IMG/VR virus record: IMGVR_UViG_3300037780_000088
Coordinates: 1-34,490 of that record
Reading direction: 5' to 3' (one strand)
Length of the DNA: 34,490 bases
Origin: a virus
Taxonomy: Duplodnaviria; Caudoviricetes
Shown one piece after another: positions 38 through 32,790 of the stretch (within the stretch, counting starts at the first letter, position 1; every line of letters starts with the position of its first letter). The position numbers and the translations under genes were made by a program. The notes under the pieces were generated by a model. The model was not told the origin of the DNA and made no database searches. It saw nothing but the letters and a program-made list of their open reading frames with translations.

Positions 38-911
38 TTGGGAGGCGGCCAGCAAGGCGGACCTGCTGGAAGAGCGCGGCGCCACGTTCCTGGATATCCG
101 CGGCATTGATGGGGTGAACCGCGAAGCGGCGGCCAAGATCATGGAAATGGTGGTGCAGGAAACGGAATTTGCCGTGCCCACGAATTCGTCCCGGGTCCGC
201 CACCAGTTGCGCGGCGGCACCCGGCCCGGGTCGTTCGCGGCGGAAGTCCTGGCGTCCGTCGCCATGTACAAATCGTTCCCGGTGTCGATCGTGCACCTGC
301 ATATTATGCGGGGGTTGAACCTGGACAGTCTCCCGCGTTCCGCCGGGTATATGGCGGATTTCCTGATTTCCACCACGATCATGGGCGGCCTTGCGTGGCA
401 GTTTAAGAAGCTGTCGAAGGGCCAGGATCCCCAGGACATGACGACGCCCGAGTTTTGGGGCCAAGCCTTGATGCAGGGCGGCGGCCTGGGCCTGTTCGGG
501 GATTTCCTGCTGTCCGACGTGAACCGGTTTGGCCAATCCCTGGGGGAACAAATGGCCGGCCCGGTGGTGAATTTCGGAAACGATATCCTGCGCCTGACCG
601 CGGGCAATGTCCGGCAGGCGCTTCGCGGTGAAAACACGCGGGTATCCCAGGAACTTATCCAATTCGCCAGGCGTTACATGCCCGGCGGTTCGGCGTGGCA
701 AAGCCGGTTGATCCTGGAACGTGAGTTGTTCAACCGCCTGGAACGCTGGGCCGATCCCTCCGCGCCCCGGCGCTGGGACCGGATCAAGCAGCGGTTGGCC
801 AGCGAAACGGGCGGGGCCTATTACTTCCCGCCGGGATCGAGCCTGATCAACAACCGGGCCGCGATTCGGCCACCGGACGTTTCGGCGGTGGTCGGTGGAT
901 CGGAGAGATAG
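1..911 (+). CDS. C-terminal part of large internal virion (ejection) protein; starts at 32842 and wraps
   Basis: Frame-3 ORF, open from the window start, in frame with 32842..34490 across the overlap (~840 aa total). C-terminus 'ALMQGGGLGLFGDFL...GPV' resembles epsilon15/BPP-1-type internal virion proteins. Confidence 0.8.
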   Translation, partial: RALKRYGITEGDWEAASKADLLEERGATFLDIRGIDGVNREAAAKIMEMVVQETEFAVPTNSSRVRHQLRGGTRPGSFAAEVLASVAMYKSFPVSIVHLHIMRGLNLDSLPRSAGYMADFLISTTIMGGLAWQFKKLSKGQDPQDMTTPEFWGQALMQGGGLGLFGDFLLSDVNRFGQSLGEQMAGPVVNFGNDILRLTAGNVRQALRGENTRVSQELIQFARRYMPGGSAWQSRLILERELFNRLERWADPSAPRRWDRIKQRLASETGGAYYFPPGSSLINNRAAIRPPDVSAVVGGSER

Positions 912-913
912 CC

Positions 914-1312
914 ATGCAGATTTCAGTTATGGACCTGGTGGCGATAATCGGCGGGGTGCTGATCCCGTTGGGCTTGGCCATGGCGGCGGCGTGGCGGGCC
1001 CAGACACGCCGGGACAAAGAACAAGATGACGCCTTGAACAAGGCCCTTAAGGAAAGTTCCGACAATCTGAACACGGCGTTGCGATCCGTCCGCAAGGAAT
1101 TCGAAGAGGACGATAACAAGATTTGGTCCGAAGTGAACGCGATCAACAAGGGCCTTGCGGATTACCGGGAACGGGTGGCCAACACCTATGTGTCCAAGGC
1201 GGAATTGCGGGACGAAGTGCAAAAGCTGGAACGCCAGTTGGAAAGCATGTCCGCCGATATCAAAACCATTTTGGCCCGGGTTCCGGTGCCGGTGACCGGT
1301 GGGGACGATTGA
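914..1312 (+). CDS. Putative holin / membrane-anchored coiled-coil lysis protein (132 aa)
   Basis: One N-terminal hydrophobic helix (LVAIIGGVLIPLGLAMAAAW), then heptad-like coiled coil; GGAG SD; stop overlaps endolysin start (TGATG). Confidence 0.55.
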   Translation: MQISVMDLVAIIGGVLIPLGLAMAAAWRAQTRRDKEQDDALNKALKESSDNLNTALRSVRKEFEEDDNKIWSEVNAINKGLADYRERVANTYVSKAELRDEVQKLERQLESMSADIKTILARVPVPVTGGDD

Positions 1313-1830
1313 TGAACAAGACCGATTTCCTTGAAACGGTGGTGGCCCCGACGCTGGCCGCCATGGATGCCGACAATTTGGCGGCGCGGCGGCTGGTGAT
1401 GGCCACGGCGCTGGTGGAAAGCGGCGATCTTGAATTCACGCGGCAACGCCTGGGCCGGGGGCGCTACGGCGCCGGCCTAGGCTTTTTCCAGATGGAAATG
1501 GCGACGGCCATATGGCTGGCCCATGATTATCTGGTGCGCCGTCCCGACGTTGGGGACCGCCTGGAAGCTGCGTTCAACCTTCTATCCGCCGTGGACCTTG
1601 ATTGGTCCGACGTGGACACGGCGGCGTTGGAAGCGAAGATGTTAACGGATCTTCGGTTCCAGTGTGCCATGTGCCGCTTGCGATACATGGTGGTCCCGAA
1701 GCCCTTACCCCATGCGGATGACCTGGACGGGTTGGCCAAATATTGGCTTCGTCATTACAACGCCGGCGGCAAAGGAACCCTGGACAAGTTCCGAACCCAT
1801 GCCGCCTGGGTAATGGAGCAAGTCAAATGA
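1312..1830 (+). CDS. Putative endolysin, lysozyme/transglycosylase-like fold (172 aa)
   Basis: ATG at 1312 is coupled to the upstream stop. Motifs 'ATALVESG' (catalytic Glu-like), 'GLGFFQME.AT', 'CRLRY', 'YWLRHYNAGGKG' fit small phage peptidoglycan hydrolases; lysis-cassette position. Confidence 0.7.
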   Translation: MNKTDFLETVVAPTLAAMDADNLAARRLVMATALVESGDLEFTRQRLGRGRYGAGLGFFQMEMATAIWLAHDYLVRRPDVGDRLEAAFNLLSAVDLDWSDVDTAALEAKMLTDLRFQCAMCRLRYMVVPKPLPHADDLDGLAKYWLRHYNAGGKGTLDKFRTHAAWVMEQVK

Positions 1831-2882
1831 TACGACGCCTGAAAATCTCCGCGGCGGTGGCCGTCGCGGTGCTGTGTCTGTCCGCCTGCGAAGCGGTGGA
1901 CACGCTGGTTGACCGGGTTTCCGATGGTCTGGTGGTTGCCCATGACCGCGTGGCCTTCGCCCGGGAGAACATATGCGGCCTGCCCGAAGGGCTGCGAAAG
2001 GTGGTCCGGGCCATGGTCCTGGCCAAGACCGATGGGAAGGTGAACACCGGCATTCTGTGCGAGTTCGCCACGGAACCTGCAGGACCGCCGAAACCGGCGG
2101 TGGCGCCAGGTTCCGAGCCGGGAAAGGAGGCCGCCGCCATGGTCCCTTTCGTTGACCTGGCGCGGGCCAGTCAGGCGGTTTATTCGCCGGACCCGGCGCC
2201 GCGCCTGCGGGCGCTTTTCGGTTCCAACGCCAAGGTGGAGGCGATCGCCGCCGGCCCGCATTTCTGCGCCGTCTGCACGTTCGCCGCGGACAAGGAACGG
2301 GTTACCGTCGTCGTGAACCGGGGAACCGAAAAGGATTTCGGGGATATCCTGACCGACATGCGGGCCTATCCCTGGTATTCGCGGGCGTTGGGTATCCATC
2401 ACCGCGGGTTCGGATCCGGCGCCGGCGCCCTGTGGGACGCCGGCCTGGGTGAGCGGATCCAGGGGGCCGCGGATGTGAAACGCCCGGTGATCCTGACCGG
2501 TCATTCCCTCGGCGGCGCCCTGGCCGCCTGTGAAGCCGGCCTGATGATCGAAAAGACGGGTAAGGCGCCCGTGGGTCTGGTGACCTTTGGCGCCCCGCGC
2601 GTCGGCCTTCGTGTGTTCGGGGTGGCCGATATCCAGGACCGCCTGGACGCCCGGGGCCGTGAGGCCGGCAAATTCTATCGGGTGCAGTTTCGCCACGGCG
2701 ACGACGTGGTGACGGAAGTTCCCACGTTCCTGCCGGGGTGGCGACATGCCGCCGGATATCTGATTAAGGTGGGGTTCGGGTCCGGTGACGGGTTCCGGGA
2801 CCACATGGCGGCGAAATACGTTGCCGCGGTCGGACTGTGGGTGACCGAAGCCCGCCAGAAGAACGTCATTGAAGGTGTTTAA
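1827..2882 (+). CDS. Lipoprotein fused to class-3 lipase (alpha/beta hydrolase), 351 aa
   Basis: ATGA overlap with endolysin. Signal peptide with lipobox (MIRRLKISAAVAVAVLCLSA-C). Lipase_3 motifs 'NRGT', 'HHRGF', 'TGHSLGGALA', 'TFGAPRVG', 'DDVVTEVP', 'DHMAAKY' give a Ser-Asp-His triad. Confidence 0.85.
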   Translation: MIRRLKISAAVAVAVLCLSACEAVDTLVDRVSDGLVVAHDRVAFARENICGLPEGLRKVVRAMVLAKTDGKVNTGILCEFATEPAGPPKPAVAPGSEPGKEAAAMVPFVDLARASQAVYSPDPAPRLRALFGSNAKVEAIAAGPHFCAVCTFAADKERVTVVVNRGTEKDFGDILTDMRAYPWYSRALGIHHRGFGSGAGALWDAGLGERIQGAADVKRPVILTGHSLGGALAACEAGLMIEKTGKAPVGLVTFGAPRVGLRVFGVADIQDRLDARGREAGKFYRVQFRHGDDVVTEVPTFLPGWRHAAGYLIKVGFGSGDGFRDHMAAKYVAAVGLWVTEARQKNVIEGV

Positions 2883-3174: not shown

Positions 3175-3478
3175 GTTCCCATTCCCCTTGCCAGAAACGA
3201 TGGGTGACCATGATGTATCCGGGTTCCAGGCCATGCATGGGGCCGTGTTCGATGTACCAGATTTCACGGCGAAGCGGATTGCCCACCAGAATATCCCGGC
3301 GGGGGTCGTAGCACCGGAATTCCAGCACGTCCCCGACGTGCCAAAGGCGATCCTTGGGCAAAATTTCGCAGCACCGGCGGTTTACCAGAATGGCGTCCAT
3401 GACGTGTTTCTGGCGGCGGACCTCGATAAACTGCGGGATCCTACCGCCATTTTTGGCGGGATCGGCCGGCGGGCTCAT
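3158..3478 (-). CDS. ASCH/PUA-like (DUF3850-like) protein (106 aa)
   Basis: 'CEILPKDRLWHVGDVLEFRCYD...GNPLRREIWYI...GLEPGYIMV' follows the DUF3850 pattern; start overlaps the upstream gene's stop. Confidence 0.65.
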   Translation of the reverse strand: MSPPADPAKNGGRIPQFIEVRRQKHVMDAILVNRRCCEILPKDRLWHVGDVLEFRCYDPRRDILVGNPLRREIWYIEHGPMHGLEPGYIMVTHRFWQGEWEHVVLP

Positions 3479-4095
3479 GGCTCAAGATCCCGGGCCATAC
3501 GTTCGACCTGGACGATAGCGGATTGGACCGTCTGGGCCGTCTGGTCACCGCCGAAGGCTATAGACAGGTTGGCGATCAAGTCCCCGAAGGCGTTGATTAC
3601 GTCGCTTGGCGCCATGGGGAATTTCTTTTCCATGCGCGAAACCTTGCCCACCAGCCGATCCGCCAGGATCTTGACGTATCCGGCCCGGGTGTCGGCAAAC
3701 GACGCCAGAAGCGGCGCCGCGCCGGGGTTGTCCTTGTCGAAGGGATAGGTTGCAAGGACGGTGGCCGCCCGGTCGATGACCCGTTGTTGCAGATGCATGA
3801 CGATAGCCTGGAAGGGTGGAGCGCATGGGGTTTCGGCCAGTTGGTGACACCAGACCGCGCCGGCCCGGGACGCGGCGGAAATCACTTCCGCCGGCGTCAT
3901 TTGGTTGCGGGCCTTCGGATCGGTGCGGATTAGGGTGGTAAGCGCCTGCCGTATGCTGGTGGAAATCAGGGTGGCGCCCATGGCGTCGGAATGGGCGGTG
4001 GCGGCGGCCTCCATGCGCTGGGCCTTCGCCTCCGCTTCGTCAAAGGTTTTCAGTGCTGCGGCCTTGGCCGCCGCGTCGTTGTCTCGGGTATCCAT
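3475..4095 (-). CDS. Hypothetical helical protein (206 aa)
   Basis: AGGAAG SD before ATG; stop overlaps the next start; no recognisable motif. Confidence 0.7.
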   Translation of the reverse strand: MDTRDNDAAAKAAALKTFDEAEAKAQRMEAAATAHSDAMGATLISTSIRQALTTLIRTDPKARNQMTPAEVISAASRAGAVWCHQLAETPCAPPFQAIVMHLQQRVIDRAATVLATYPFDKDNPGAAPLLASFADTRAGYVKILADRLVGKVSRMEKKFPMAPSDVINAFGDLIANLSIAFGGDQTAQTVQSAIVQVERMARDLEP

Positions 4096-4125
4096 CGAGC
4101 ATCTTCCTTTCTGCTGGTGCCGGAA

Positions 4126-4863
4126 TCATTCATCGGCGGTTTCGCTGGTGCTCGATCGGTTTTGCAAGGCGTCTTGGAAGACTTCGGGCGCCTGATCCAT
4201 CATCATGGAAATAATCGCCCGTTGGTAATCCCGGGGCTGGCGTTGCAGGCGGTTGGCCCAATTGCGGGCCTTTTTCTTGATGTTCTCCCGCTCCCGGTAG
4301 TTGTCCCCAAGGTACTGATAATCATGCAACACCATGGGTTCGTCGTAGTTCATGTAAAGGCTTTCCGTGGCCGGCCCACCCCGCGTGGTGGCGGTGAAGT
4401 CGATCCGCCGCCAGTCGGCCAAGGCACGGTCGTACAGCGGGTTCGCATAGGCGGAAATCGCGACGGGGCAGGGGATCCGCGTGGCGATGGCCAGGAATAG
4501 ATTATGGTCCTCCAGCGTCAATTCATGGGTGTAAAGATCCCGCTGGCCCTTCCTGGTTTCCAGGATATATGGCGGATCGAAATAGCCGAATTCGCGCCCG
4601 GTCCATTGATACCCACCGATGAATTCCAGGGCGTCCCCGTGAATGACGGTGACCGCCGGCGGGCGGTGGAAGGTGTCGCGGATCAAACCGTATTGGGCCT
4701 GTTCGCGTTCAATCAGGATCGCCCGGTGGGGCCGCCGCATGTGGCGGAAAACGCCGAGGTTGCCGCCGAAGGCTTCAATGTACACGTCGTGTTTGGGGAT
4801 CTGGTTTATGATCGTCTGATAGACGCCGGCACCGGATTTGCCCCCTGGGTATGTCTGTCGCAC
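4126..4863 (-). CDS. DNA N6-adenine methyltransferase, D12 (Dam/EcoRV-like) class (~245 aa)
   Basis: Likely GTG start at 4863; 'YPGGKS', motif I 'YIEAFGGNLGV', catalytic 'FDPPY', 'ISAY', 'ESLYMNY'. No cognate endonuclease nearby. Confidence 0.88.
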   Translation of the reverse strand: MRQTYPGGKSGAGVYQTIINQIPKHDVYIEAFGGNLGVFRHMRRPHRAILIEREQAQYGLIRDTFHRPPAVTVIHGDALEFIGGYQWTGREFGYFDPPYILETRKGQRDLYTHELTLEDHNLFLAIATRIPCPVAISAYANPLYDRALADWRRIDFTATTRGGPATESLYMNYDEPMVLHDYQYLGDNYRERENIKKKARNWANRLQRQPRDYQRAIISMMMDQAPEVFQDALQNRSSTSETADE

Positions 4864-4897
4864 GGTATTTTCCCTTTCCCGTGGTTGCGGAGACGGC

Positions 4898-5158
4898 TTA
4901 GGCCGCCGAAGGCGGGCGAAAGAAGATGACGCCCGAGGCGGACATGTTCCAGGCGGCTCGGCCCACCATCTTTTCCGGACGGAGAAGATAGGCGCCGGCC
5001 TTGCTGAACCCTTCGTAAATGAAGATTTCCTGGTTTGGATCGCCGGTGGCCTTAAGCCATGCCTTGGCCGCGTCGATCGCAGCGCCCGTGCTGGGGAACT
5101 GGCGGTCAATGACTTCCGTCTGGATATCGTCCTGGTGATAAGCGAATGCGAAATACAT
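4898..5158 (-). CDS. Hypothetical protein (86 aa)
   Basis: Fits between neighbouring genes in the leftward operon; plausible composition. Confidence 0.55.
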   Translation of the reverse strand: MYFAFAYHQDDIQTEVIDRQFPSTGAAIDAAKAWLKATGDPNQEIFIYEGFSKAGAYLLRPEKMVGRAAWNMSASGVIFFRPPSAA

Positions 5159-5161
5159 GGC

Positions 5162-5533
5162 TCACCCCGCTAGATCATCGGCGGTCAGGGTGTAGGGAAG
5201 GCCGTCCGGCCCGCGCACGGTGACCAGCCATCCGTCCGTGGTTGTGACGGTGACCAGCCGGTAATCCTGGGGCCCGAAGCGCATCCGGGTTCGTTGGCCG
5301 GGCTGGAATGTCGGGATCGCCGGCGGCCAGGGGATAACCGGCATGTCTCCGGATCCTGCACCGCCGGATCCGCCGGTGGTCGACGGCCCGGGCGCCGGTA
5401 AGGCCGGCATGCGCCCGGATCCGCCACAAGACCGGCAGGTGTGTTTTTCGGAATGGGGGAAATAAGGCACGGAACGCCGGTGGGCGTTCCAGCCCCGCCC
5501 GTGGCAAGACGGGCAAATACGGGTGTTGTCCAT
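5162..5533 (-). CDS. Hypothetical protein with DnaJ-type CxxCxGxG zinc-finger pair (123 aa)
   Basis: 'CPSCHGRG' and 'CRSCGGSG'; AGGA SD. Confidence 0.65.
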   Translation of the reverse strand: MDNTRICPSCHGRGWNAHRRSVPYFPHSEKHTCRSCGGSGRMPALPAPGPSTTGGSGGAGSGDMPVIPWPPAIPTFQPGQRTRMRFGPQDYRLVTVTTTDGWLVTVRGPDGLPYTLTADDLAG

Positions 5534-5586
5534 GAATGATCATCCTGTTTTCTCGTTCGGATGGGGTGGGGTAGGGGGTCACGTCG

Positions 5587-5847
5587 TTATCCCTGGTCGC
5601 GGTCCAGCTTTTCCAGGATTGCTTCCAGAACATAGGTGGTCATAGGTTTAGCCACCGGCCCGCGCTGGCATACGCCATGGACGCGATCACGGATGTTGTC
5701 CGGGACGCGCGGGCGGAAGGGGGTTGTTACCTCGGGCGCGGGCGCCGGCTGGCTGGCCGGTGCGCCGCCCTTGTTGATTACGTCGGCAACGGCCTTGGGG
5801 TCCGCCGTGGTGCCTTTCGTTGGGCGCTTAGGAAGTGCCATGGTCAT
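5587..5847 (-). CDS. Small partition adaptor, ParG-like ribbon-helix-helix (86 aa)
   Basis: Overlaps the parA stop. Flexible N-terminal tail, then 'FRPRVPDNIRDRVHGVC...KPMTTYVLEAILEKL' (beta-alpha-alpha pattern), as in type Ib partition systems. Confidence 0.7.
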   Translation of the reverse strand: MTMALPKRPTKGTTADPKAVADVINKGGAPASQPAPAPEVTTPFRPRVPDNIRDRVHGVCQRGPVAKPMTTYVLEAILEKLDRDQG

Positions 5848-6536: not shown

Positions 6537-6566
6537 GTCTTGGGTCCATGTCGGTTTTGCAACGCT

Positions 6567-6604
6567 GGATCCGGTGGGATCCTTCGGGGATCCAATATGG
6601 ATCC
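6567..6604. promoter_or_regulatory. Phased GGATCC array upstream of parA (candidate centromere/operator)
   Basis: GGATCC at 6567, 6577, 6588, 6599 (10/11/11-bp spacing), overlapping the -10 of the parA promoter. Confidence 0.7.
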
Positions 6605-6623
6605 TTCATATTTGAAATGTCAA
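6595..6623 (-). promoter_or_regulatory. sigma70-type promoter of the parA operon
   Basis: Minus strand TTGACA (6623-6618) - 17 bp - CCATAT (6600-6595), close to the alphaproteobacterial CTTGAC-N17-CTATAT consensus. Confidence 0.7.
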
Positions 6624-6951: not shown

Positions 6952-8052
6952 ATGAACGATGGCCGCGAGATTTTCCAGCCGGACCTATTCCTTGACCAGT
7001 TGACGGACGTTTCCCCGATCAAGGGTGAACGTGCGTCCATGGAGTTTCCCTTTTTCAGTTTGGAGAAGGGCCGGCGCATGGACCCGATGGTATATGCGGA
7101 CGATTACGTGACGATCCGCATTGAGCCCAGCACCAAGGGCATGGCGACGATTTGGGACAAGGACATATTGATGTATGTCATTTCCCTGATTAACGAAAAG
7201 CTGGAACGGGGCGAAGAGGTAGACCGGACGGTGACCTTTGCCGCCTGGGATTTTCTCAAGGTGACGGGCCGGCACAAGGGTAAGACCGAATACGAACGGT
7301 TCATGGATGCCCTGGAACGCCTGGACGGGACGCGGATCCGCACGAATATAGAGGCGGGCGGCGATCGAGAGCGCCGCGGCTTCGGCTGGATCGAAAGTTG
7401 GCGGGTGATCGAGCAAGGCCGGCCAGACGGTTCCAAGCGCATGGTGGGCGTGAGCATCACCCTTAATCAGTGGATGTTCCGGGCGGTGGTCCAGGAACGC
7501 CGGGTGCTGACCGTCAACCGGGCGTATTTCCGCCTGACCATGGGCCTTGAACGGCGCATGTACGAACTGGCCCGCAAGCATTGCGGCGGCCAGCCGGAAT
7601 GGTTCGTGAGCCTGAAACGCCTTCACCAGAAATCAGGATCCCGGCGGGAGTTCCGCAAGTTCAAGGCGGATATCGTCAAAATCATAGGCCGGGACAGCAT
7701 CCCGGATTACCGCCTGGCGCTGGTCGATCCGGCGGAAGCGGCAACGCCGTTCAAGCCGAAGGACGGCGGATTGCTGGTGCGCGTCACGCCGCGCGAAATC
7801 GAGCCGGCGGCACCGGCGGAACCGGCGGTGGCCGAATCGGTCACCAGAAAAACCGGCGGTGTCGGCCAGAGTGACCTGCTTTTGAAGACGGCCACGGTAG
7901 AAGAGGCCCGGTCGATCCTGCCTGGATATGACGTGTATTATGTCGAGAATGCGTGGAAGGATTGGACCCGGAAACGGGGCGAAGTGATCGACAATCCAGA
8001 CCGCGCATTCCTGGGCTTCTGCCGGTCCTATAAGGATCGAAACCCCCTCTGA
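6952..8052 (+). CDS. repA: Plasmid replication initiator RepA (RPA-like family), ~366 aa
   Basis: 'SMEFPFFSL', 'GMATIWDKDILMY', 'AL.RL.GT.I.TNI', 'YFRL...LERRMYELARKHCG.Q' match alphaproteobacterial RepA initiators; ATG 6952 with AGAAGG SD; iterons on both sides. Confidence 0.9.
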   Translation: MNDGREIFQPDLFLDQLTDVSPIKGERASMEFPFFSLEKGRRMDPMVYADDYVTIRIEPSTKGMATIWDKDILMYVISLINEKLERGEEVDRTVTFAAWDFLKVTGRHKGKTEYERFMDALERLDGTRIRTNIEAGGDRERRGFGWIESWRVIEQGRPDGSKRMVGVSITLNQWMFRAVVQERRVLTVNRAYFRLTMGLERRMYELARKHCGGQPEWFVSLKRLHQKSGSRREFRKFKADIVKIIGRDSIPDYRLALVDPAEAATPFKPKDGGLLVRVTPREIEPAAPAEPAVAESVTRKTGGVGQSDLLLKTATVEEARSILPGYDVYYVENAWKDWTRKRGEVIDNPDRAFLGFCRSYKDRNPL

Positions 8053-9260: not shown

Positions 9261-10028
9261 ATGACGACACGTGGAAACCCGGTCTTTGTCCAGTACTGTT
9301 CCAAGGATCGAATTGTGGAGACGGGGCCGCTTACGCCGGCGGCGGAACTGGCCTATCGGCGGATCTGCGATCATGTCTTGGCGACGAACGACCACCTAAA
9401 ATTCACCCGGCGGACCATCCGCCAATTGGCCAAGGCGGACCGGTCTTTTGATCGGATCTGGCAGGAGTTAAGCACGGCCCGTGATGACCAGGGCCGCCCG
9501 CTGGTGAGCCTGCGCCATGACGCGATCGACGACGCGGAATATGTCGTGGTGCCCTGGGCGTCGGAAACCCTGGCCAAGACGGAGAACCTACGTAGTCAGC
9601 GATCCGACGCCGGCAAGGCATCGGCGGAGGCCCAGCGGCGCCGGGCGGAAGAACCGGACATGACGGTGACCGATCCGACGTTTGAAAGTTTCTGGAAAGA
9701 ATGGCCGGGCCGGAAGCACAAGGACGCGGCCAGGGAACAATGGGCCGGGATGATGGCCGAGGCCCCGGGCGGTGACACCGGGGCCGCTGAACTTGCCGTC
9801 ACCATCATCCAGGGGTTGCGCCGCTACATTTCGACCGCGCCAAGCGTGAAAGTCGGGCGCATGTGGGACCGGCCAGACTGGTGGCTGGAAAACAAGATCT
9901 ACACGAAATCATCCGATGACCATGAACAACGCTGGGCCGCCAAGACCGAAGAGGGTTTGCGGCCCAAGTATTGGCATGAGCGGATGAAGGCAAAGAACGG
10001 TGGCGCCGATTCCGCCACCGCCGGATAG
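9261..10028 (+). CDS. Phage replication-initiator-like protein (YdaU/DUF1376-like N-terminus), ~255 aa
   Basis: GAGG SD before ATG 9261. N-terminal 'LTPAAELAYRRICDH', 'RSDAGKASAEAQRRR' linker and C-terminal 'FESFWKEWPGRKHKDAAREQW' are typical of phage replisome organisers. An upstream in-frame ATG at 9066 is possible. Confidence 0.65.
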   Translation: MTTRGNPVFVQYCSKDRIVETGPLTPAAELAYRRICDHVLATNDHLKFTRRTIRQLAKADRSFDRIWQELSTARDDQGRPLVSLRHDAIDDAEYVVVPWASETLAKTENLRSQRSDAGKASAEAQRRRAEEPDMTVTDPTFESFWKEWPGRKHKDAAREQWAGMMAEAPGGDTGAAELAVTIIQGLRRYISTAPSVKVGRMWDRPDWWLENKIYTKSSDDHEQRWAAKTEEGLRPKYWHERMKAKNGGADSATAG

Positions 10029-10042
10029 GGCGGTACTCGATC

Positions 10043-10605: not shown

Positions 10606-10835
10606 TACACCCGGCAGGGTTTTATTGGGCCTGGGACGAAGACGGGAACGCGCAGCCGGTGGAATGTCTGGGCAACGGCAATGTCCTTACCTTCGGCGTC
10701 GGTGGTCCGGTCCCTGAAAACTCGTTCGTTCATATCGACAAAAACCCGATCCCGCCGCCGGCCGATCCCGCCAGAAACGGCGGTGGTCGGGCCGGTGGCA
10801 GCTTGACGAACACCGGATTGACGGGGGGTGGGTGA
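10602..10835 (+). CDS. Hypothetical protein (77 aa)
   Basis: GGAGG SD and coupled start; 'GFYWAW' N-terminus; tail encoded by the dispersed palindromic element. Confidence 0.6.
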   Translation: MIHPAGFYWAWDEDGNAQPVECLGNGNVLTFGVGGPVPENSFVHIDKNPIPPPADPARNGGGRAGGSLTNTGLTGGG

Positions 10836-10838
10836 TCC

Positions 10839-11153
10839 ATGGTTGAAGGACAGGAAAAATGCCTCCGGGCTCTGGCTGAACTGACCCTGCCCGGCGGGGA
10901 GTGGTGTTCCGCGTTTAGGTCGATCATAGAGGCCACGGGGATGGACCGCCGCACGGTGCGGATCAACGTCCGGGCTTTGGCCCGGAAGGGTTTGGCCGAA
11001 TATCACAAGGCCCTTTGGACCGATGACGGTACGCCCGCCGGCGCTGGATACTGCATTACCCAGGAAGGGCAGGCGGTTGCCGCCAAGCTGGTGGAGTCCG
11101 ATCCCGCCGGATCCGGCGGTGCTGCAGGGGCCGGCGAAAGGACTGTGAGATGA
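10839..11153 (+). CDS. Putative winged-helix DNA-binding protein (104 aa)
   Basis: 'FRSIIEATGMDRRTVRINVRALARKGLAE...GYCITQEG' is an HTH + wing pattern. Confidence 0.6.
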   Translation: MVEGQEKCLRALAELTLPGGEWCSAFRSIIEATGMDRRTVRINVRALARKGLAEYHKALWTDDGTPAGAGYCITQEGQAVAAKLVESDPAGSGGAAGAGERTVR

Positions 11154-12754: not shown

Positions 12755-13025
12755 TTTCGAATTGATTACCTGCCCGTCGTGCGGGCGGGCGAACGAGCCG
12801 GAAGAACTGGCGCCGGCGGGTTTCACCATGAGCCCGTCCGGAACTTGTCATATTTCGATGACGTGGCAGGCGATGTGCTGGAACTGCGAAGCGCCGTTGA
12901 AGGTTTCGGCCACGTTGGACCTTAAGGACGGCCAGGGCTCTTGCTGCATTACCAGCGTGCGCCCCATGCCGACGCCTGCCGATATCAGCTATTGCCGGGA
13001 ATTCGGGATCTTATCGCCGGATTAG
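12741..13025 (+). CDS. Small zinc-ribbon-like protein (94 aa)
   Basis: 'CPSCG' and 'CWNC' pairs. Confidence 0.55.
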   Translation: MHLDNFELITCPSCGRANEPEELAPAGFTMSPSGTCHISMTWQAMCWNCEAPLKVSATLDLKDGQGSCCITSVRPMPTPADISYCREFGILSPD

Positions 13026-13158
13026 GCGGTGACGGATTCGAGCCCCGCCGGATCCGGCGGTGATCGATGACAGTCCTTTTACACCCGTGATTTAGAGCCG
13101 CGATTTGCGCCAGGGCGCGATTAGATGCACACTTGGCCCAATTTCATACCAACCGGTC

Positions 13159-15895: not shown

Positions 15896-16909
15896 ATGGC
15901 TTTGAGCGAAGAAGACCGCGGGGTTATCCACGCCGCGTTGGGAAATCTGACAATCGGGGAGAAAAACTCCGGCGATTGCTGGATTGAAGACCAGAAGACG
16001 GGCCGGCTTCGGCCCAACGCCCGTTTCGTCAACAATCTTATCCCCGGCCAGAAATTCAAGGTGGCCGAAATCGTGGAGGTCTGGCGGGCCGGTGTCGAAG
16101 CCGGGACGCTGGTCGATCCGAACGCCGGCGGATCCGGCAAGCGCCCGCCGGCGGCCCCGCCCGAAACGGCGGTGCAAGATCCGGAGAAGATGGCGGAAAC
16201 CGTGCAGGATCCCACCGCCGAAACCGGCGGTGAAGCGGGTCCGGATGAAGGATCGCAGGACGGCGGCCAGGAATCCGACACCGGCGAAACCGGCGGTGAA
16301 CCGGAGGCACCGGACGCGGCGGGAGAGGGTGAGAAATCCCCGCAATCCACAGAGCCGGAAGAACGGTCTTCCACAGACGACGCGGGAGAGCCGGAACAGT
16401 CCACAGGCGATAAACCTGGCGATGACCCGGGACAGGCGCCAGGCGCACCGGAGGCGGCCCCACAGGCCGCAAAGAAACGCCCGCGGATGGAATTCGGTAA
16501 GGGCCGGTTCGTCGAAGAGGCGGATTTTATCGCCGTGGCCGAATTCGTGGCCGAACGGACGGTGAAGGAAGCCGATCGCCAGGGCGTGAAATGGGGCGAT
16601 CTGCCGCAACTGGCGGAACTGGTGGCCGCGTTGATGACGGTTCCGGATATCGAAGCGGCGGCGCTGTGGGGCGACTTCCACCCGAACGGCAAGTGGGACG
16701 AAATCCGCGAAGCGGAACGCGAGGTCTGGCGGGTCATGGTCCAGGCGTTCCAGGCCCGGCGGGGGTCGTTCAGCTACCACCAGACGGCGGAAGACGAGGC
16801 CCCGCGGATCCCGCGCCGCCCGAGCGGCAAGCCCGGGTTTATGACCCTGGGCCTTCGGAAACTGACGGTGGGCAAGGACGGTGACCGGATCGAAACCACG
16901 GACGCCTAA
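15896..16909 (+). CDS. Hypothetical protein with long acidic disordered linker (337 aa)
   Basis: AAGGAG SD; two globular-looking ends joined by an E/D/P/G-rich region. Confidence 0.75.
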   Translation: MALSEEDRGVIHAALGNLTIGEKNSGDCWIEDQKTGRLRPNARFVNNLIPGQKFKVAEIVEVWRAGVEAGTLVDPNAGGSGKRPPAAPPETAVQDPEKMAETVQDPTAETGGEAGPDEGSQDGGQESDTGETGGEPEAPDAAGEGEKSPQSTEPEERSSTDDAGEPEQSTGDKPGDDPGQAPGAPEAAPQAAKKRPRMEFGKGRFVEEADFIAVAEFVAERTVKEADRQGVKWGDLPQLAELVAALMTVPDIEAAALWGDFHPNGKWDEIREAEREVWRVMVQAFQARRGSFSYHQTAEDEAPRIPRRPSGKPGFMTLGLRKLTVGKDGDRIETTDA

Positions 16910-18942: not shown

Positions 18943-19071
18943 CCTGCAGCACCAGCGGTTCCGGCGGTGACCGAATCCAACACCGCCATTTTGGCCGATA
19001 GCCGGCGGCCGATCCCGCCGAATTCGGCGGTAAGCGCCGGCGAAATCGGCAGGGAAAAGGAGGAAGAGAAG

Positions 19072-21464: not shown

Positions 21465-22442
21465 GTGAGCAAAACGAAAACCCTTCCCCGTCCGGTCGAT
21501 GATTACGACGTGGCCGCATGGCGGAATTACTACGTGGTGAACCCGGACTATCTGCGGGCGGTTGGTGCCGATGTGGCGCCCGGCGGCCTGATCGACATGG
21601 GCGGCGGTGGCGGCGCCCCGGATCCCACCGGTGAAAACGGCGGTGGCGCCGGCGACGGTGCCGGCGACGGTGCCGGGCCGGACGGTGGCGCGGGCGGTGA
21701 TAACGCCTGGATGACGGAATTGAACGGGGAGCAATTCCAGATCCCCGAGAATTTCCGTGGTCAGAACCCGGGCGAAATCAACGCGCCGGCGGCCCTTAAG
21801 GCGGCCATGGACCTGCGCCAGAAGGTCGAGGAAATGGGCAAGGGTCCGGAAATCCCCGACGCCTATGAACTGCGCGTTCCGGACGAAATCAAGGAACAGG
21901 TGGAGCGCATGGGCGGCCTCAATGCCCAGCATCCCCTGGCCCAAGGTCTGTTCGCCTTTGCCAAGGAAAACAAGCTGGGCCAGGACGTGGTGGACGGCCT
22001 GGTGGCGATCTATGCGAAAAATCAGGTGGAAGACACCATTGATCCGGGCGAGGAACACAAGCGCAACCTGGACATGCTGGGCGATCATTTCGGGGACCAG
22101 AAGGAAGGCAAGCTGACCGAAATCACCCAATGGGTGAACGCCCGGTTCAAAAAGAACTTCGACGCACACGACCCGGACGCGGGCAAGATCGACCCGGTGG
22201 CCCAGGAACTTCTGCTGATGAACGAAAGCGCCGGCGGGATCATGCTCCTGGACATGATGCGCCAGGCGTCCCGGGATGTTCAGGTGCCCGGTGGTGACGG
22301 CAACGGCGCCCCGCGGGTGACGGAAGCGGATCTGGACAAGCTGATGGCGTCGGACAAGTACCTGGCGGGCGATCCGTCCACCGTGGCCGAGGTCGAAGCC
22401 ATGGCCAAGGCCCTGAAACCCGGGGTGCGGAACGTCCGGTAG
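21465..22442 (+). CDS. Capsid scaffolding/assembly protein (325 aa)
   Basis: Lies between portal and capsid; acidic and helical; 'IPENF', 'IPDAYEL', 'FAKENKL.QD', 'KY..GDP'. Confidence 0.75.
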   Translation: MSKTKTLPRPVDDYDVAAWRNYYVVNPDYLRAVGADVAPGGLIDMGGGGGAPDPTGENGGGAGDGAGDGAGPDGGAGGDNAWMTELNGEQFQIPENFRGQNPGEINAPAALKAAMDLRQKVEEMGKGPEIPDAYELRVPDEIKEQVERMGGLNAQHPLAQGLFAFAKENKLGQDVVDGLVAIYAKNQVEDTIDPGEEHKRNLDMLGDHFGDQKEGKLTEITQWVNARFKKNFDAHDPDAGKIDPVAQELLLMNESAGGIMLLDMMRQASRDVQVPGGDGNGAPRVTEADLDKLMASDKYLAGDPSTVAEVEAMAKALKPGVRNVR

Positions 22443-22518: not shown

Positions 22519-22650
22519 GCCCTGATGGCCAGCACCGCCGGATCCACCGGTGATCGATGCCCGCCGGTTTCGGCGGTGTGTGATTCGGCCACCGCCATTA
22601 TGGGCGGTGTAGGCCCGGCCCGTTACGGATCAACGGTTTAGCCCGCCGGT

Positions 22651-26833: not shown

Positions 26834-26886
26834 GGATCCTAAAAGGATCCTGGGTGGATCCGGTGCAGGATCCTACCGCCGGATCC
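26834..26886. repeat. Phased GGATCC array after the nozzle gene
   Basis: GGATCC at 26834, 26845, 26856, 26868, 26881. Confidence 0.85.
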
Positions 26887-26948
26887 GGCGGTGATTGATT
26901 CCACCCCCGCCGATTTCGGCGGGGCGAGATCTCGGAAAGGACAAAGGC

Positions 26949-27824: not shown

Positions 27825-30712
27825 AACAGGCATTCACAACCCCCAAGTTTGACCGCCGGTTCTACAGCCTAAACCGCCTTCGGGGCGCGTCCCGGGCCGG
27901 CCAGCAATCCCTGGCGTCCATCGGCATGGAACAAGGGGTGGTCGGGGCGACGTTGGCCGGGATTACCCGGCTTGGCTCGGACCTGGCGGACCAATTGGAA
28001 AAGGACGAAAACGAGAAGGCCGCCCGCACCGGCACCCGCCTTGGGACCGTGGCCGGCCAGGAAAACTTCCGGGCGGGCCGCCCGCTGCAATTCCGCGAAG
28101 GCGACGACGTGGGAACAACGGCCTTCAATCAGGCCCTTGAGGCGTCCTATCTGTCGGAACTGGATTTGAACATTGACGACAATATGGGCCGCCTGGCGCG
28201 GGCGTTCCCCACGTCGCCGTCCTCGTTCGACGATGCCTTTGAAAACGAGATCCGGACCAAGTTGCTTCCGATGGTGGATGCGGACATGCGCCCTGCCCTG
28301 TCCATGGAACTGGACCGGCGGAAACGGAAGGCCCTGGAAGGGATTTTCAGCGCCTATGAACAACAGACGGCGGCGGAAACCAACGCCAGCCTTATCCGGG
28401 CTATGGATATCTACGGCGGCCAGAACGCCAGCGCGTGGCGCCACGGTGACCTTGAGACGGCCAGCGAGACGGATATGAAGTTCCGGGGCGTCCTGGATAG
28501 CCGCACGGATCTGACGCCCCAGCAAAAGGAAAAGGCCCTGCTGGATTTCGAGGCGGAAGGCCGCCGCCAGACGATCCTGGCGGCCTTCGACGAAGCCCAG
28601 GGCCAGGGATTGCCGGCGGCGGAAGCCTTTATCAAGGAATTCCGCAAGGGCCGACATAAGGACATAGATCCGGACGTGGTGGAAAGCCTGGCCGGGGAAA
28701 TGACGCAATCGTTGAACCTTGCCCGAGCCGACGCCAAGGCCATGGCCAAGCAGGCCCAGGAGCAAATTTCCCGCGTGGTTACCGTGCTGGAACAAGGCCA
28801 CCCGGTGGGGGACGCGCTGGAAAAGGCGGAACGCCTGCTGGGATCCGTGATGGATCCTGACGTGGCCCAGGAACTGAACCGGGCGAAGGATCTGTTTCGG
28901 CTGCAAAAGACCTTCCGGGGCATGACGCCGGTCACCCTGGCGGCCCAGGTGCGGGCCATGGACCAGGATATTTCCGGCGCCCGCAAGGTCACCCCGGAAA
29001 TGCTCCAAACCCGGGATTTGGCGGCCAAGATGTTGGACAACATGGAACGGGGCTTGAAGGACGATCCGCTGGAATACGCGAACCGCGTAGGTGTCGTGTC
29101 CCTGCCGGCGTTGGACTTGGAAAACCCGGCTTCTCTCACGGGGCGGGTGGAAGCCGCCGCCAGGGTGTCCGAGTTCTACGGGCGCCCTGCCCTGCCCTTC
29201 ACGGGCCAGGAAATGGACAGTATGGCCGCCGGGTATGCGGAAGCCGACGCCACGCAACGGTTGGCCTTCCTGGAACGCCTGGGGGCCTTTGACATGCCGG
29301 CGGACATGGAACGCCGGGTGCTGGACCGGATCGCCGGCAAGGCCCCTGCCCTCGGTCTGGCGGTCGAAATGGTCCGCCGGGATCCGATGACGGCCCGCGG
29401 GATCCTGCTTGGCCAAGATCTGATCAAATCCGGTGCCACGAACCGGCCCAAGGCCGCCGACGTGCAAGACCATTTCAACGCCTACGTCCAGGATGCCTTT
29501 CGGGCGGATCAAACCGGGGCCTCGCGCCGGGCGGCCCAGGAAGCAACCCTGGCCCTCTACATGCACATGTCGCAGGGCGACAATTCGGCGGAATTCGATC
29601 CCGACCGGTTCAACGAGGCCGCGGCCAAGGTGATTGGCACGGTGGCGGAACGTGAGGGCCAACATTTCGTCCTTCCGCCGGGGGTGACCGAAAGCCAGTT
29701 TGATGACCGCATGGACGCCCTGGCGGAAGCGGACCTGCACCCGGAACGCCTGCAATTCGAGGAAACGTCTTCCGGCCCGCACCGGTTGACGCGGGACGGC
29801 TTGGAGCCGATCGGCGCGGAAGAGGTCCGGGACGATGGGGTGTTGGTATCGGTCGGCCCCGGCCAATACATGGTCGGTTTCGAGCGTGAAGGCGGTATGC
29901 GCTTTGCCGTGCGGGCGGATGGGAAACCCTACGTTCTCGATTATGGCGCCCTGCCCTCGCCCAATCCTGCAGCACCGCCGAAATCGGCGGGATCGGCCGC
30001 AGCAAGCGACGAACTGGCGATGGGAAATGCCCGGGCCCTATTCCTGGCCGCACGGCGCTATGGCCGGACGCTGAAAGAGAAGTTTCAATCGTTGATCCCG
30101 CGCAGCACGGCGGACGAGGCAAAGCGGCAATTCCGTTCATCGGCGGCCCAGATTTCGGCCTCTGCCGCCGCGCGGACGCTGGAACACCTGTTCAACGAGG
30201 AAAGCCGCCGGCGCCTGGATGCCGGCAAGCGCGGCCCGGCGTCCAAGGTGACCTTTTCCCAGGATGACCTGGTGCCCAACGGCACGGATCAAGACGCGAT
30301 CGAAGCCCTGGCGCAAGCGGTCTGGAATAACGACGTGGATTTCAGGCAGCGGGTGGCCGAAATCCGTTTCGGCACGTTCGATGACGAATGGGTGGACCGG
30401 GTGAAGGCCGCCACGGGCCAGGATCTTTCCGGGCTGGTTGACGCGATCGACACCGGGCAGATCCAAAAGGCGTTCAAAAGCCATGGGCCCTGGGGTGAGA
30501 CGGCGGAAGATCAAGAGCCGGTTTCGCCCGAAGCCCTGTCCATTTACCGGGGCGTGGTGCGCCACTTCGATAGCGTGAGCGTCCGCCGGCACAAGAATGG
30601 GGACACCTTCCTGTTTGAAAAGCGGATCAACGGCGTGGTGGCCGTAATCCAGCAGCGCCGCACGGCCCAGGGGACGCTGGCATTTTTCAACATGTGGATG
30701 AAGAAACCGTAA
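27821..30712 (+). CDS. Internal virion protein with C-terminal PBECR3-like nuclease-fold domain (963 aa)
   Basis: ATGA coupling; long helical body; C-terminal 'IDTGQIQKAFKSHG...DQEPVSPE...FLFEKRINGVVAVIQ...LAFFNMWMKK' follows the PBECR3 pattern. Confidence 0.72.
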   Translation: MKQAFTTPKFDRRFYSLNRLRGASRAGQQSLASIGMEQGVVGATLAGITRLGSDLADQLEKDENEKAARTGTRLGTVAGQENFRAGRPLQFREGDDVGTTAFNQALEASYLSELDLNIDDNMGRLARAFPTSPSSFDDAFENEIRTKLLPMVDADMRPALSMELDRRKRKALEGIFSAYEQQTAAETNASLIRAMDIYGGQNASAWRHGDLETASETDMKFRGVLDSRTDLTPQQKEKALLDFEAEGRRQTILAAFDEAQGQGLPAAEAFIKEFRKGRHKDIDPDVVESLAGEMTQSLNLARADAKAMAKQAQEQISRVVTVLEQGHPVGDALEKAERLLGSVMDPDVAQELNRAKDLFRLQKTFRGMTPVTLAAQVRAMDQDISGARKVTPEMLQTRDLAAKMLDNMERGLKDDPLEYANRVGVVSLPALDLENPASLTGRVEAAARVSEFYGRPALPFTGQEMDSMAAGYAEADATQRLAFLERLGAFDMPADMERRVLDRIAGKAPALGLAVEMVRRDPMTARGILLGQDLIKSGATNRPKAADVQDHFNAYVQDAFRADQTGASRRAAQEATLALYMHMSQGDNSAEFDPDRFNEAAAKVIGTVAEREGQHFVLPPGVTESQFDDRMDALAEADLHPERLQFEETSSGPHRLTRDGLEPIGAEEVRDDGVLVSVGPGQYMVGFEREGGMRFAVRADGKPYVLDYGALPSPNPAAPPKSAGSAAASDELAMGNARALFLAARRYGRTLKEKFQSLIPRSTADEAKRQFRSSAAQISASAAARTLEHLFNEESRRRLDAGKRGPASKVTFSQDDLVPNGTDQDAIEALAQAVWNNDVDFRQRVAEIRFGTFDDEWVDRVKAATGQDLSGLVDAIDTGQIQKAFKSHGPWGETAEDQEPVSPEALSIYRGVVRHFDSVSVRRHKNGDTFLFEKRINGVVAVIQQRRTAQGTLAFFNMWMKKP

Positions 30713-30740
30713 GGGGTGCGCGGGATGACGGTTGGCCAGT

Positions 30741-30768
30741 GGATCCCTGGTGGATCCCCCAAGGATCC
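30741..30768. repeat. Phased GGATCC array
   Basis: GGATCC at 30741, 30752, 30763. Confidence 0.85.
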
Positions 30769-30834
30769 GGAAAGGCCCGCCGCCCTTAGCGCCGAAGCGA
30801 TCCCGCCCCGGCAATATAGTGGAAGGTCGATCAA

Positions 30835-32790
30835 ATGTTAATAGACACCCGGGACTTTCAGATGCAGGCGGCCTTAAGGCCGGAAGGCGAAAAGCCCACG
30901 GGGCTGGTGGAAAACATGCAGGCCGCCTTCCGAGCGACGGCGTTTTCGGATCTGTTCGTGTCCGAGTTCACCAATCTGCATTCGGCCTTTGACGGGTACG
31001 CGGCGGAAATCGAGGCCGCCACCGGCAAGCGCCTTCGGAACCCGTTGGACGTTGGGCCGGCCTATAACCAATTCGGCGTGGCCAGCCTGTCCGACGCGGC
31101 GCGGGCGCGTAAGGAAGCCTTGGACGAATTCATGGCCGAAGCGCGGTCCCTGCACGTCGTGGCGGACACGGAAGGCGGCGAGAACTTCCGGTTTCGCACC
31201 CTGGCCGATATCGAAGCGGCGATTTCCGCAGAGGCCCAGGCCCGGGACAAAACCCAAGCCGACGTGGCGGGCCGCCAGACGACGGCGGGCGCCTTCGGTC
31301 AATTCTTCGGATCCGCCGGCGCCTTGATGATGGACCCGCCGGTGGGTGGAACCCTGGCCTTCGGGGCGCAATGGGCACAGGGGATCCTACGCCCGTTGAT
31401 CGCGGAAACCCTGATTGCCGGCACGGTAGAGGCCGCGATACAGCCGAAGGTGCAGGAATATCGCCGGCGGCTGGGGTTGGAGGCTGGATTTGCGGAAGGG
31501 GCCTTGAACGTGGCCACCGCCGCCGGTGGGGCCGGCCTGTTCGGCGTTACGGCCAAGCTGGCTGGGATCGGATCGCGTGGGTTGTTGCGCATGTCCCGGG
31601 ATCTGATCCACGCCCGCACCGGTGCCGTGCGGGACGCGGAAACCATCCTGGAACGTGCCGCCGAACAGGAAGCCCTGGTGCCCCATGAAGACTATGAACG
31701 GTTCCTGGGGGACATGGACCGCGCCCAGGGGGCCGTCCGCGAAGGCCGCCCGGTGCGGGAAGACGATGTTGCCGGGCCGGCGCCGGCGCGTACCGCCGAA
31801 AACGAAGGGGCCGCCGGCGCCACCGCCGAAACCGGCGGGAATCGATCACCGGCGAAATCGGCGGTGGTCGACGAAGATCTGGCGACGGTTCGGGCCCCGG
31901 AGGCGGTGGAGGGTTTCCGCGCGGCGCGTGGCAACCGCACCAGCTTTGAACAGGTGGAAGAGACGATAGACCGCGGCGTGGTCACCGTAGGATCCGCTGT
32001 GGAGCCTTCCGGGATCCTGCCGTTTTCCGAAGAACTGGCGATTTTGCGGGGTAAGGCGCCGGCCCCGAAGCTGGAAAACTACCCGGTTCTTATGGCGATC
32101 AAGCGGGCCGGCGGGATCCGCCCGGACGCGATCGGGGCGGATGACCTGCGGGCAATCGGGGTGACCAGCCGCACCTTGCCGGGCCTGTTCAACAAGGCCA
32201 GCGAGTTCCGAGCCGTCGATAACCTGGGGGAAGTTCTGCACGATACAGGACTTTTCGGAACCCGGGCGGATGGGCGGGTGAGCCCGGACGATATCCTGGA
32301 AGCCATTGACGAGGAATTGCGCGGGCGCCCGTTGCGGCATGCCGACGACGCCGATACGGAAGTGCAATTGGACATTCTGGGGGCCTTGGACCGGATCCTG
32401 ACCGAAGAAAACATTTCGCTGGATCTGCCAGACGCGGAGATTGTCCGCCGGATGCAGGTGGCGGGCAGGGGGGTGGAGGAAGCCTATTACCCGGGCGGCG
32501 AGGAATTCGCCCGGTCGGTCGATGCCGCCACCCGTGAAGAACACGCCATGGCCGCCGAACGGGCGTTGGATGAACTTGACGGCGGCGAAGCCGAGCGGGA
32601 CGCGCTGGTGTCCCAGGAACTTCAAGACCTGATCGACGAGGATCCGGAAGCCCTGGTGCCGGTGGACGTGGCCATTGACCCGTCCACGGGCCGGGAAGTG
32701 CCGGTGTTCGTCACCCGCCAGGAATTGGCCGAAGGGTTCCAGCGGGAAGAAGCGTTCATTTCGGAGTTTGAAGCCTGCGCGGGTCTGTAG
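30835..32790 (+). CDS. Internal virion protein (651 aa)
   Basis: GAAGG SD; Gly/Ala amphipathic segment 'GQFFGSAGALMMDP', acidic C-terminus ending 'ACAGL'; synteny. Confidence 0.72.
   Translation: MLIDTRDFQMQAALRPEGEKPTGLVENMQAAFRATAFSDLFVSEFTNLHSAFDGYAAEIEAATGKRLRNPLDVGPAYNQFGVASLSDAARARKEALDEFMAEARSLHVVADTEGGENFRFRTLADIEAAISAEAQARDKTQADVAGRQTTAGAFGQFFGSAGALMMDPPVGGTLAFGAQWAQGILRPLIAETLIAGTVEAAIQPKVQEYRRRLGLEAGFAEGALNVATAAGGAGLFGVTAKLAGIGSRGLLRMSRDLIHARTGAVRDAETILERAAEQEALVPHEDYERFLGDMDRAQGAVREGRPVREDDVAGPAPARTAENEGAAGATAETGGNRSPAKSAVVDEDLATVRAPEAVEGFRAARGNRTSFEQVEETIDRGVVTVGSAVEPSGILPFSEELAILRGKAPAPKLENYPVLMAIKRAGGIRPDAIGADDLRAIGVTSRTLPGLFNKASEFRAVDNLGEVLHDTGLFGTRADGRVSPDDILEAIDEELRGRPLRHADDADTEVQLDILGALDRILTEENISLDLPDAEIVRRMQVAGRGVEEAYYPGGEEFARSVDAATREEHAMAAERALDELDGGEAERDALVSQELQDLIDEDPEALVPVDVAIDPSTGREVPVFVTRQELAEGFQREEAFISEFEACAGL

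Follow-up and report, generated by a model that had tools for sequence, protein, structure and literature searches.

Why would a virus genome carry many copies of a GC-rich palindrome, inside genes as well as between them, and which protein would recognize them? We addressed this question for IMGVR_UViG_3300037780_000088, a 34,490-base virus contig analyzed as an entire record (hereafter "the window"), in which the repeat takes the form CCGCCG-N4-CGGCGG. The window combines a podovirus-type module for head, tail, and ejection with genes for ParA, a small ribbon-helix-helix (RHH)-like partner, and a D12-like methyltransferase, as well as an RPA-family RepA and its iterons. Because ParA, its partner, and RepA with iterons accompany the podovirus-type module, we consider the window to be a phage-plasmid, and its capsid relatives, which sit mostly in alphaproteobacterial genomes, suggest an alphaproteobacterial host. 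An original prediction, made from the sequence of the window, had proposed a genome-wide palindrome family, but overlooked two features that became central here: host methyltransferase targets placed at a fixed distance from the palindrome arms, and a link to a gene of the Upf31 type.

The palindrome family itself is far more abundant than expected by chance. The exact pattern occurs 10 times in the window, while any other spacer between 0 and 12, with the arms and their order kept, gives 0–1 occurrences. With a matrix built on the core and 2 flank bases only, 27 copies were detected at ≥14 bits, compared to 0–2 in Markov nulls of orders 2 and 5 (12 runs each); exact copies in Markov nulls averaged 0.19–0.69, with a maximum of 5 (300 runs each, orders 2, 5, and 6). 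Codon-preserving shuffles (300 runs), the comparison suggested with the original prediction, yielded on average 1.57 matrix copies (maximum 6) and 0.43 exact copies (maximum 3), well below the real counts, and the predicted family was thus confirmed. Copies are dispersed through the window every 0.3–4.3 kb, including 9 intergenic copies, 2 overlapping gene ends, and 16 coding copies, the latter using two of the three frames (6 and 10) and mostly falling in Pro/Ala/Gly-rich stretches. The predicted copy list was mostly correct, except that the copy at 19037 is weak (9.6 bits) and those at 4133, 13014, and 16157 had been missed. All four proposed pairs of shared flanks hold (mismatches 3/31, 2/29, 5/42, and 3/29), and the proposed pair spacings of 26 and 31 bp are real.

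Deviations from the consensus arms were one-sided at 45 of 52 positions and compensated at 5, compared to 4.2 compensated positions expected with random pairing. Since the two arms thus change independently, they are best interpreted as two half-sites in duplex DNA rather than as hairpins. This pattern supports the earlier suggestion of a distributed protein-binding site, as does the conservation of palindrome positions and spacings in a relative described below, but does not support the alternative suggestion of a repetitive extragenic palindromic (REP)-like hairpin element.

The flanks of these palindromes follow a strict register. In 47 of 54 window flanks, the base at position +7 outside the arm is the target of a host methyltransferase, compared to ≤7 flanks at any other position. 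Shuffling of the flank columns led to a mean of 7.5 in-register flanks and a maximum of 16 (5000 runs), so that the register is not a mere base preference; the +7 base itself is A in 31 flanks, C in 18, G in 5, and T in none. Sites found in register include GANTC (16/54 flanks), GATC, CTGCAG, ATCGAT, GTCGAC, CGGCCG, RGATCY, GGCC, and CCGG, and they start at different offsets, i.e., +3 for CTGCAG, ATCGAT, GTCGAC, and GGATCC, +4 for CGGCCG, +5 for GGCC, and +6 for GANTC, GATC, and CCGG, with every offset bringing the methylated base to +7, 3′ of the arm. While the cut positions of the corresponding enzymes differ, the methyl position is constant. The spacings of paired palindromes result from two palindromes sharing a single site under this geometry: 31 = 16 + 5 + GANTC + 5 and 26 = 16 + 2 + ATCGAT + 2, in both cases with the target adenines of the two strands at +7. 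Elsewhere, the rarer sites have been purged: GANTC occurs 12 times against 75 expected from codon shuffles and CGGCCG 4 times against 68, and the survivors are nearly all in register (GANTC 11/12, CTGCAG 4/4, ATCGAT 3/3, CGGCCG 4/4, and GTCGAC 2/3). We compared the methyl positions to the matching rows of Tables S3–S4 of PMC4752239, in which GANTC, CTGCAG, ATCGAT, CTGAAG, GGCC (7/7 rows), and TGGCCA (4/4) agree, as does CGGCCG in 3 of 4 rows.

Because the list of site motifs was selected after inspecting the window, the register was evaluated on held-out sequences, i.e., one relative, plasmids, and viral cassettes. Gene order in the relative, IMGVR_UViG_3300032274_000031 (hereafter "G001"; 33,999 bases, 53% GC), matches that of the window, and the main shared proteins are 32–60% identical. 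It carries 11 palindromes at ≥14 bits, or 14 when weaker ones are counted, in six clusters at places matching those of the window. Its flank sites, however, differ from those of the window, and include CTGAAG/CTTCAG, CTGTAG, TCGA, and a 30-bp pair around CCGG. Using the motif list from the window, 12 of 22 G001 flanks were in register (shuffle mean 2.3, maximum 8), and 18 of 22 once motifs were added afterwards; GANTC was found in 8 of 28 flanks.

These data bear on two explanations that require no methyltransferase-like binder. In the first, the repeats would be REP, miniature inverted-repeat transposable element, or CIR-like mobile hairpins with no phage partner. The CIR repeats of Caulobacter and Brucella are indeed alphaproteobacterial repeats tied to GANTC, as is the window repeat, but the available part of their description presents them as chromosomal hairpins of ~110 bp with a single site type (PMC2229807), compared to a unit of 16–20 bp and at least nine site types in the window. 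Along with the uncompensated arms, the flanks represent different sites in one register rather than copies of each other, and orthologous copies in G001 carry other sites, so that this explanation is largely refuted and we consider it extremely improbable. Across 5 alphaproteobacterial genomes searched, the exact 20-bp pattern was found once. The second explanation is a natural polylinker, in which sites between bound dimers would be cut by host enzymes and then rejoined or used to capture DNA, favoring insertions and module shuffling. The arrays do resemble polylinkers, coding copies fall in linkers ahead of swappable modules (the middle module of the 651-aa ejection protein is different in L157), and the repeat regions of IncP-1β plasmids are known as insertion regions. 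Yet the constant feature is the methylated base and not the cut, module shuffling leaves the +7 register unexplained, GANTC and Eco57I-type sites are included, many copies lie inside essential genes, and linkers simply tolerate insertions. We thus regard recombination as an unlikely role for these repeats.

Among ~320 capsid- or terminase-related loci, part of which were surveyed only when ≥3 kb, the array was found in G001 alone. Pattern scans of viral contigs returned 119 and 21 loci, nearly all with single chance copies. A generic k-mer-offset detector applied to 223 stretches left G001 outside of its top 22, so that negative results from this detector mean little. Five array-free capsid-related loci (L190, L191, L197, L205, and L343) contain only 1–2 GANTC against 23–47 expected, hence GANTC avoidance extends beyond the palindrome system. 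A distant capsid relative, L218, has 1 GANTC against 54 expected, along with six dispersed CGAAC-N3-GTTCG palindromes (3311–18944), for which an obvious restriction-site register was not apparent.

Beyond these relatives, the palindromes follow one gene. In the window, this gene encodes an Upf31-family, amino-methyltransferase-like protein with motif I YIEAFGGNLG, motif IV FDPPY, and a basic C-terminal helix, YRERENI. Its product is 58% identical to the G001 ortholog and 45.6% identical over 204 aa to Upf31 of plasmid pBP136, including the region after residue 174, while no relative with a solved structure was identified by sequence. Protein matches were found in 160 plasmid records, 133 of them over 80% of the length and many annotated as upf31.0, and in P2-like Salmonella phages. 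The S-adenosylmethionine-binding motif I and DPPY are intact in 27 of 27 homolog rows. Using the combined window and G001 matrix at ≥10 bits, we detected 15 sites in pAKD14 and 19 in pBP136, mostly in clusters including the upf31 promoter region. In-register flanks amounted to 16/30 in pAKD14 (3.1 expected) and 20/38 in pBP136 (3.2 expected; shuffle maxima 9–10 in 3000), with CTGCAG in register for 5 of 6 sites, CTCGAG for 2 of 2, and TGGCCA for 3 of 4 in pBP136, while GANTC was in register for 0 of 77 and 0 of 65 sites in pAKD14 and pBP136, respectively. Similarly, 14 of 42 flanks were in register in ten viral cassettes (3.7 expected, shuffle maximum 9–10 in 3000), and in unrelated viral contigs the palindromes cluster in and around the methyltransferase gene in a polylinker-like arrangement. 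A set of 426 other loci yielded 316 matrix flanks, including 31 with the site in register. Of the 8 top-ranked loci, six encode a homolog of the methyltransferase, even though methyltransferase alignment had supplied just 22 of the 426 loci; the remaining two had been retrieved with the GANTC-palindrome pattern. These loci share no further gene with the window, save for a DUF3850 match in two array-free loci.

This co-occurrence limits the case for any other binder. A different phage protein, such as the N-terminal domain of ORF (open reading frame) 15896, the RHH partition protein, an ejection-protein module, or TerS, could bind the repeats for partition or packaging, with the Upf31-type gene as a passenger. 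Such candidate genes are common to the window and G001, and the sites are genome-wide rather than at the methyltransferase promoter. Among 1.84 billion representatives, the small domain upstream of terS (window 15896–16180; L303 3466–3729) was recovered from no genome other than these two, and its model has no clear fold match but a weak winged-helix resemblance (best Z 6.0, root-mean-square deviation 4.2, 67 aligned). However, palindrome and register also occur in plasmids and viral contigs that have only the Upf31-type gene in common, and we find a separate binder improbable. The binders named in the original prediction fared no better: neither of the winged helix-turn-helix genes at 10839 and 11644 has a BLASTP match in G001, which also lacks a match to the ASCH protein at 11150, and we rejected all three, while RepA has its own iterons. 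The latter, with a period of ~23 bp, flank repA on both sides (6790–6894 and 8053–8141).

The Upf31-type gene and the palindrome also appear to change together. Of 10 other loci examined, 8 have a palindrome upstream of this gene, and 8 of 10 promoters use it as the spacer behind TTGAC, with the C of the −35 box lower strand at +7 (in L479 by eye). In 13 homolog loci with other palindromes, a matrix-free test placed 19 of 220 flanks in register at base 15 from the dyad, equivalent to +7, and ≤3 at other positions, with distant flanks flat (15/1348). The C-terminal helix follows the arm type, with (F/Y)RERE in 14 of 14 CGCC-type rows, T(D/E)RQ in 12 of 12 CTAC-type rows, and a third form in Salmonella phage SW3; L479 represents a switch among the CGCC-type rows. 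In SW3 (L496 8420–8540), a cultured P2-like phage, a third palindrome type is located upstream of the Upf31-like gene, in a region that packs GGTACC, TGGCCA, TCGA, CTGCAG, and CAGCTG, of which TCGA and CTGCAG fall in register when judged by eye. Two loci, L492 and L493, showed no array in the range tested, but in both a palindrome accompanied by a site in register lies 0.7–1.2 kb downstream (by eye).

For plasmids, the available text on Upf31 reports that the protein represses its own promoter, where the most obvious operator is the inverted repeat (IR) 5'-CAGCATCG-3', and that repression requires a C-terminal domain modeled as a KorA-like part for dimerization and KorB binding (PMC11997246; bioRxiv 10.1101/2024.02.05.579024). 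According to the same text, Upf31 displays no Dam activity and no signal in SMRT (single-molecule real-time) sequencing when produced in ER2796 from an expression vector (PMC11997246; bioRxiv 10.1101/2024.02.05.579024).

Taken together, we propose, with a probability of roughly 0.5, that the repeats are operators of an Upf31-family dimer, and that each copy acts as a switch reading host methylation at +7. The fixed methyl-target base next to each palindrome, the purging of the rarer sites elsewhere, the co-occurrence of the element with Upf31-type genes across phages and plasmids, and the published dependence of autorepression on the C-terminal part, with an IR-family repeat as the proposed operator, would form the basis of this mechanism. 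The basic C-terminal helices would read the arms, and the two methyltransferase domains would take the +7 bases into their DPPY pockets, one per strand. Unmethylated sites, in DNA that is new to the host or just replicated, would be bound, and host methylation, by CcrM at GANTC or by any restriction methylase of the panel, would weaken binding. Least certain is the consequence: occupied sites may form roadblocks or may anchor a ParB/KorB-type clamp, timing establishment relative to the settled plasmid state. This output is the weakest step for the window phage, which has neither an operator at the promoter nor KorB: no ParB/KorB match was found among 41 scanned window proteins. A perfect parS palindrome of the chromosomal type does lie at 13159–13174, ~100 bp from one palindrome pair, although the window encodes ParA and an RHH-like partner; no exact match to it was found in G001.

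The composition of the panels would fit such a reader. GANTC is the site of CcrM, an orphan methylase. It serves as bait most often in the two phages and is in register at none of its sites in the two IncP plasmids, so that the panel differs with the likely host group. Reading methylation would also fit repression at an operator whose flanks E. coli K-12 would not be expected to methylate. Alternatively, the Upf31-family dimer may bind the palindrome and itself methylate the A (at N6) or C (at N4) at +7, outside of its recognition sequence, so that adjacent restriction sites would be pre-methylated as a safe or self mark, and its own −35 box modified for feedback. The intact motif I and DPPY, the A or C found at +7 in 49 of 54 flanks, the −35 C at +7 in most promoters, and the survival of purged sites almost solely in register would be expected from such an activity. 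The published SMRT test, as described in the available text, relied on E. coli ER2796, an expression vector, and motif finding, and did not use a repeat-bearing plasmid (bioRxiv 10.1101/2024.02.05.579024). However, chance palindromes occur at ~25 per Mb at 12 bits, so that this negative result carries some weight, and protection alone would leave sites neutral rather than 87% occupied. CcrM sites, moreover, are not known to need protection in alphaproteobacteria. We thus consider modification by the dimer itself a possible but doubtful primary role, and favor reading over protecting since reading gives a positive reason to retain host sites; an Upf31-family protein may also do both.

Several observations weigh against reading of host methylation. 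The −35 C at +7 in 8 of 10 promoters is not part of a known methylase site, and this, like the DPPY intact in all 27 rows, fits a modifying enzyme, while unprotected restriction sites should be costly to keep. The window and G001 both lack a palindrome at the promoter of the Upf31-type gene, their site being at its 3′ end. The methyl positions used for GTCGAC, CTRYAG, CYCGRG, and GGTACC are background assignments, outside the table rows compared. T is found at +7 in 0 of 82 flanks of the window and G001, but does occur in plasmids (2/30 and 4/38 flanks, at 10 bits). Of the 13 homolog loci with other palindromes, 5 are near copies, in the CGCC group the matrix-free test gives a noisy result (17/266 at base 15 and 12 at base 17), and the match between helix and arm reflects about two changes on the tree. 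Finally, the methyl position varies by enzyme for some sites in the matching rows of PMC4752239, with the RGATCY C supported by 4 of 7 rows and the second C of CCGG by 2 of 6, and the sole GGATCC row being N6-methyladenine.

Among known systems, the closest is the IR/Upf31 pair of IncP-1β plasmids (R751, pBP136, and pAKD14), which resembles the window in its palindrome type, found with the window's own matrix, in a partner protein 45% identical to that of the window, C-terminal region included, and in the same +7 register. IRs in these plasmids sit in four or five clusters, whereas the window copies are dispersed through a podovirus-type phage-plasmid, with a GANTC-rich panel. Because the promoter operator and KorB are absent, we did not classify the window repeat as a plain IncP-1β member; judged from these comparisons, it is best described as a new, dispersed, phage-borne form of this system. 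IR clusters of IncP-1β plasmids were reportedly described by Thorsted in 1998, and restriction sites were known to cluster with IRs from older IncP work. In the available text of a 2025 study, the four IR groups are described as having no explanation of purpose (PMC11997246), and the parts of the Upf31 literature considered here assign no function to the IRs and do not mention a methyl register (PMC11997246; bioRxiv 10.1101/2024.02.05.579024). More broadly, the register was not described in the literature searched, which excluded subscription-only work and supplements of the Upf31 papers that may bear on novelty.

Methylation-gated operators are well known, including Mu mom and agn43 (OxyR/Dam), pap (Lrp/Dam), the CfrBI promoter, RctB 12-mers, and P1 pac, and in each of these, methylating a site that overlaps or adjoins the binding site switches protein binding, as proposed here. 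They involve one methylase and one locus each, whereas in the window a single operator type would go with nine or more motifs, with targets of both kinds (A and C), and with a methyltransferase-like binder. In cluster A mycobacteriophage stoperators and in the dispersed centromere or KorB sites of N15 and RK2, tens of single-protein sites are distributed across a temperate element as in the window; stoperators, however, are asymmetric and oriented with transcription, unlike the symmetric window palindromes, and we know of no link between stoperators and methylation.

At a more general level, we would give slightly better than even odds to the following interpretation of these sequence patterns: Upf31-family proteins would be methyltransferase-fold dimers acting seven bases outside a palindrome on any A or C, and mobile elements would couple them to naturally occurring polylinkers made of host methylase sites, reading or forging the host methylome simultaneously across many restriction systems and CcrM, palindrome and helix changing together. 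If so, this family would represent a general host-methylation sensor in phages and broad-host-range plasmids. IncP-1β plasmids are major carriers of resistance and degradation genes, and for their IR clusters the +7 register provides a single-base, directly testable rule, which also offers a possible reason for the negative outcome of the published test for methylation of chromosomal DNA. The system extends to phages, including the P2-like SW3, which offers a tractable model, alphaproteobacterial phage-plasmids, and other viral contigs. Each of the two main outcomes would be new: one operator geometry reading many host methylases, or a methyltransferase modifying outside of its recognition site.

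Table 1 Palindromes and the associated Upf31-family gene in the 34,490-base window.
Feature	Coordinates	Strand	Basis
Upf31-family amino-methyltransferase-like gene, proposed repeat binder	4126..4863	-	PHROG 56 E 3.5e-21; co-occurrence with arrays
Palindrome; left flank GANTC in register	873..888	.	matrix and register
Palindrome, lipoprotein-lipase linker; left CTGCAG, right CCWGG	2085..2100	.	matrix and register
Palindrome; left GGATCC, right CGGCCG	3444..3459	.	register
Palindrome at 3′ end of the Upf31-type gene; GANTC and GATC; pair at the same place in G001 (12888/12919)	4133..4148	.	
Palindrome; left GATC, right GTCGAC	5361..5376	.	register
31-bp pair within repA, one common GANTC, both adenines at +7	7813..7859	.	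register and spacing
Palindrome; left GANTC, right GATC	10018..10033	.	register
Palindrome; left CGGCCG	10768..10783	.	register
Palindrome; left GANTC, right CTGCAG	11104..11119	.	register
31-bp pair, common GANTC; outer RGATCY and ATCGAT; ~100 bp from parS-type site	13014..13060	.	
Three palindromes (16157, 16215, 16281), acidic linker of ORF 15896	16157..16296	.	
Three palindromes behind terL, spacing 31, 32; same place in G001 (31, 31)	18952..19030	.	
Palindrome inside scaffold gene; left GGATCC, right CCGG	21628..21643	.	register
Three palindromes ahead of capsid gene; 26-bp pair sharing ATCGAT and 31-bp pair sharing GANTC; same place in G001 (31, 26)	22535..22607	.	
31-bp pair, common GANTC	26876..26922	.	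register and spacing
Palindrome, linker of 963-aa ejection protein; left CTGCAG, right CGGCCG	29975..29990	.	
26-bp pair sharing ATCGAT, linker of 651-aa ejection protein; matching place in G001: 30-bp pair sharing CCGG	31823..31864	.	

Other observations concern the rest of the window. Strain variation at the palindrome sites was not observed in the sequencing runs examined. The two contig ends (1–40 and 34455–34490) overlap by ~30 bases inside a phrog_684 gene, consistent with a circular assembly. A Chi-like 8-mer occurs 11 times in the window against 3.7 expected and 4 times in G001 against 3.3; we rejected a Chi-like reading of the repeats and consider this excess a by-product of the arm. 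ORF 2869, which is zinc-finger-like, has a homolog in G001 only and no atlas match. The middle of the 651-aa ejection protein (31885–32450) represents a swappable slot, occupied by an unnamed domain in the window and G001 and by a different, ParB-like-looking module in L157 (17671–20055); the model of the middle domain was unusable (predicted local distance difference test score of 40), and its atlas matches were under 0.9. Finally, the window carries a second repeat family, absent from G001, in which three or four GGATCC/GATC sites recur with an 11-bp period in seven, mostly intergenic, arrays (6567–6604, 12044, 17491, 21385, 26834, 30741, and 32790). GGATCC/GATC triplets number 8, compared to 0.01 in codon shuffles, and these arrays possibly represent a separate GATC-reading site.

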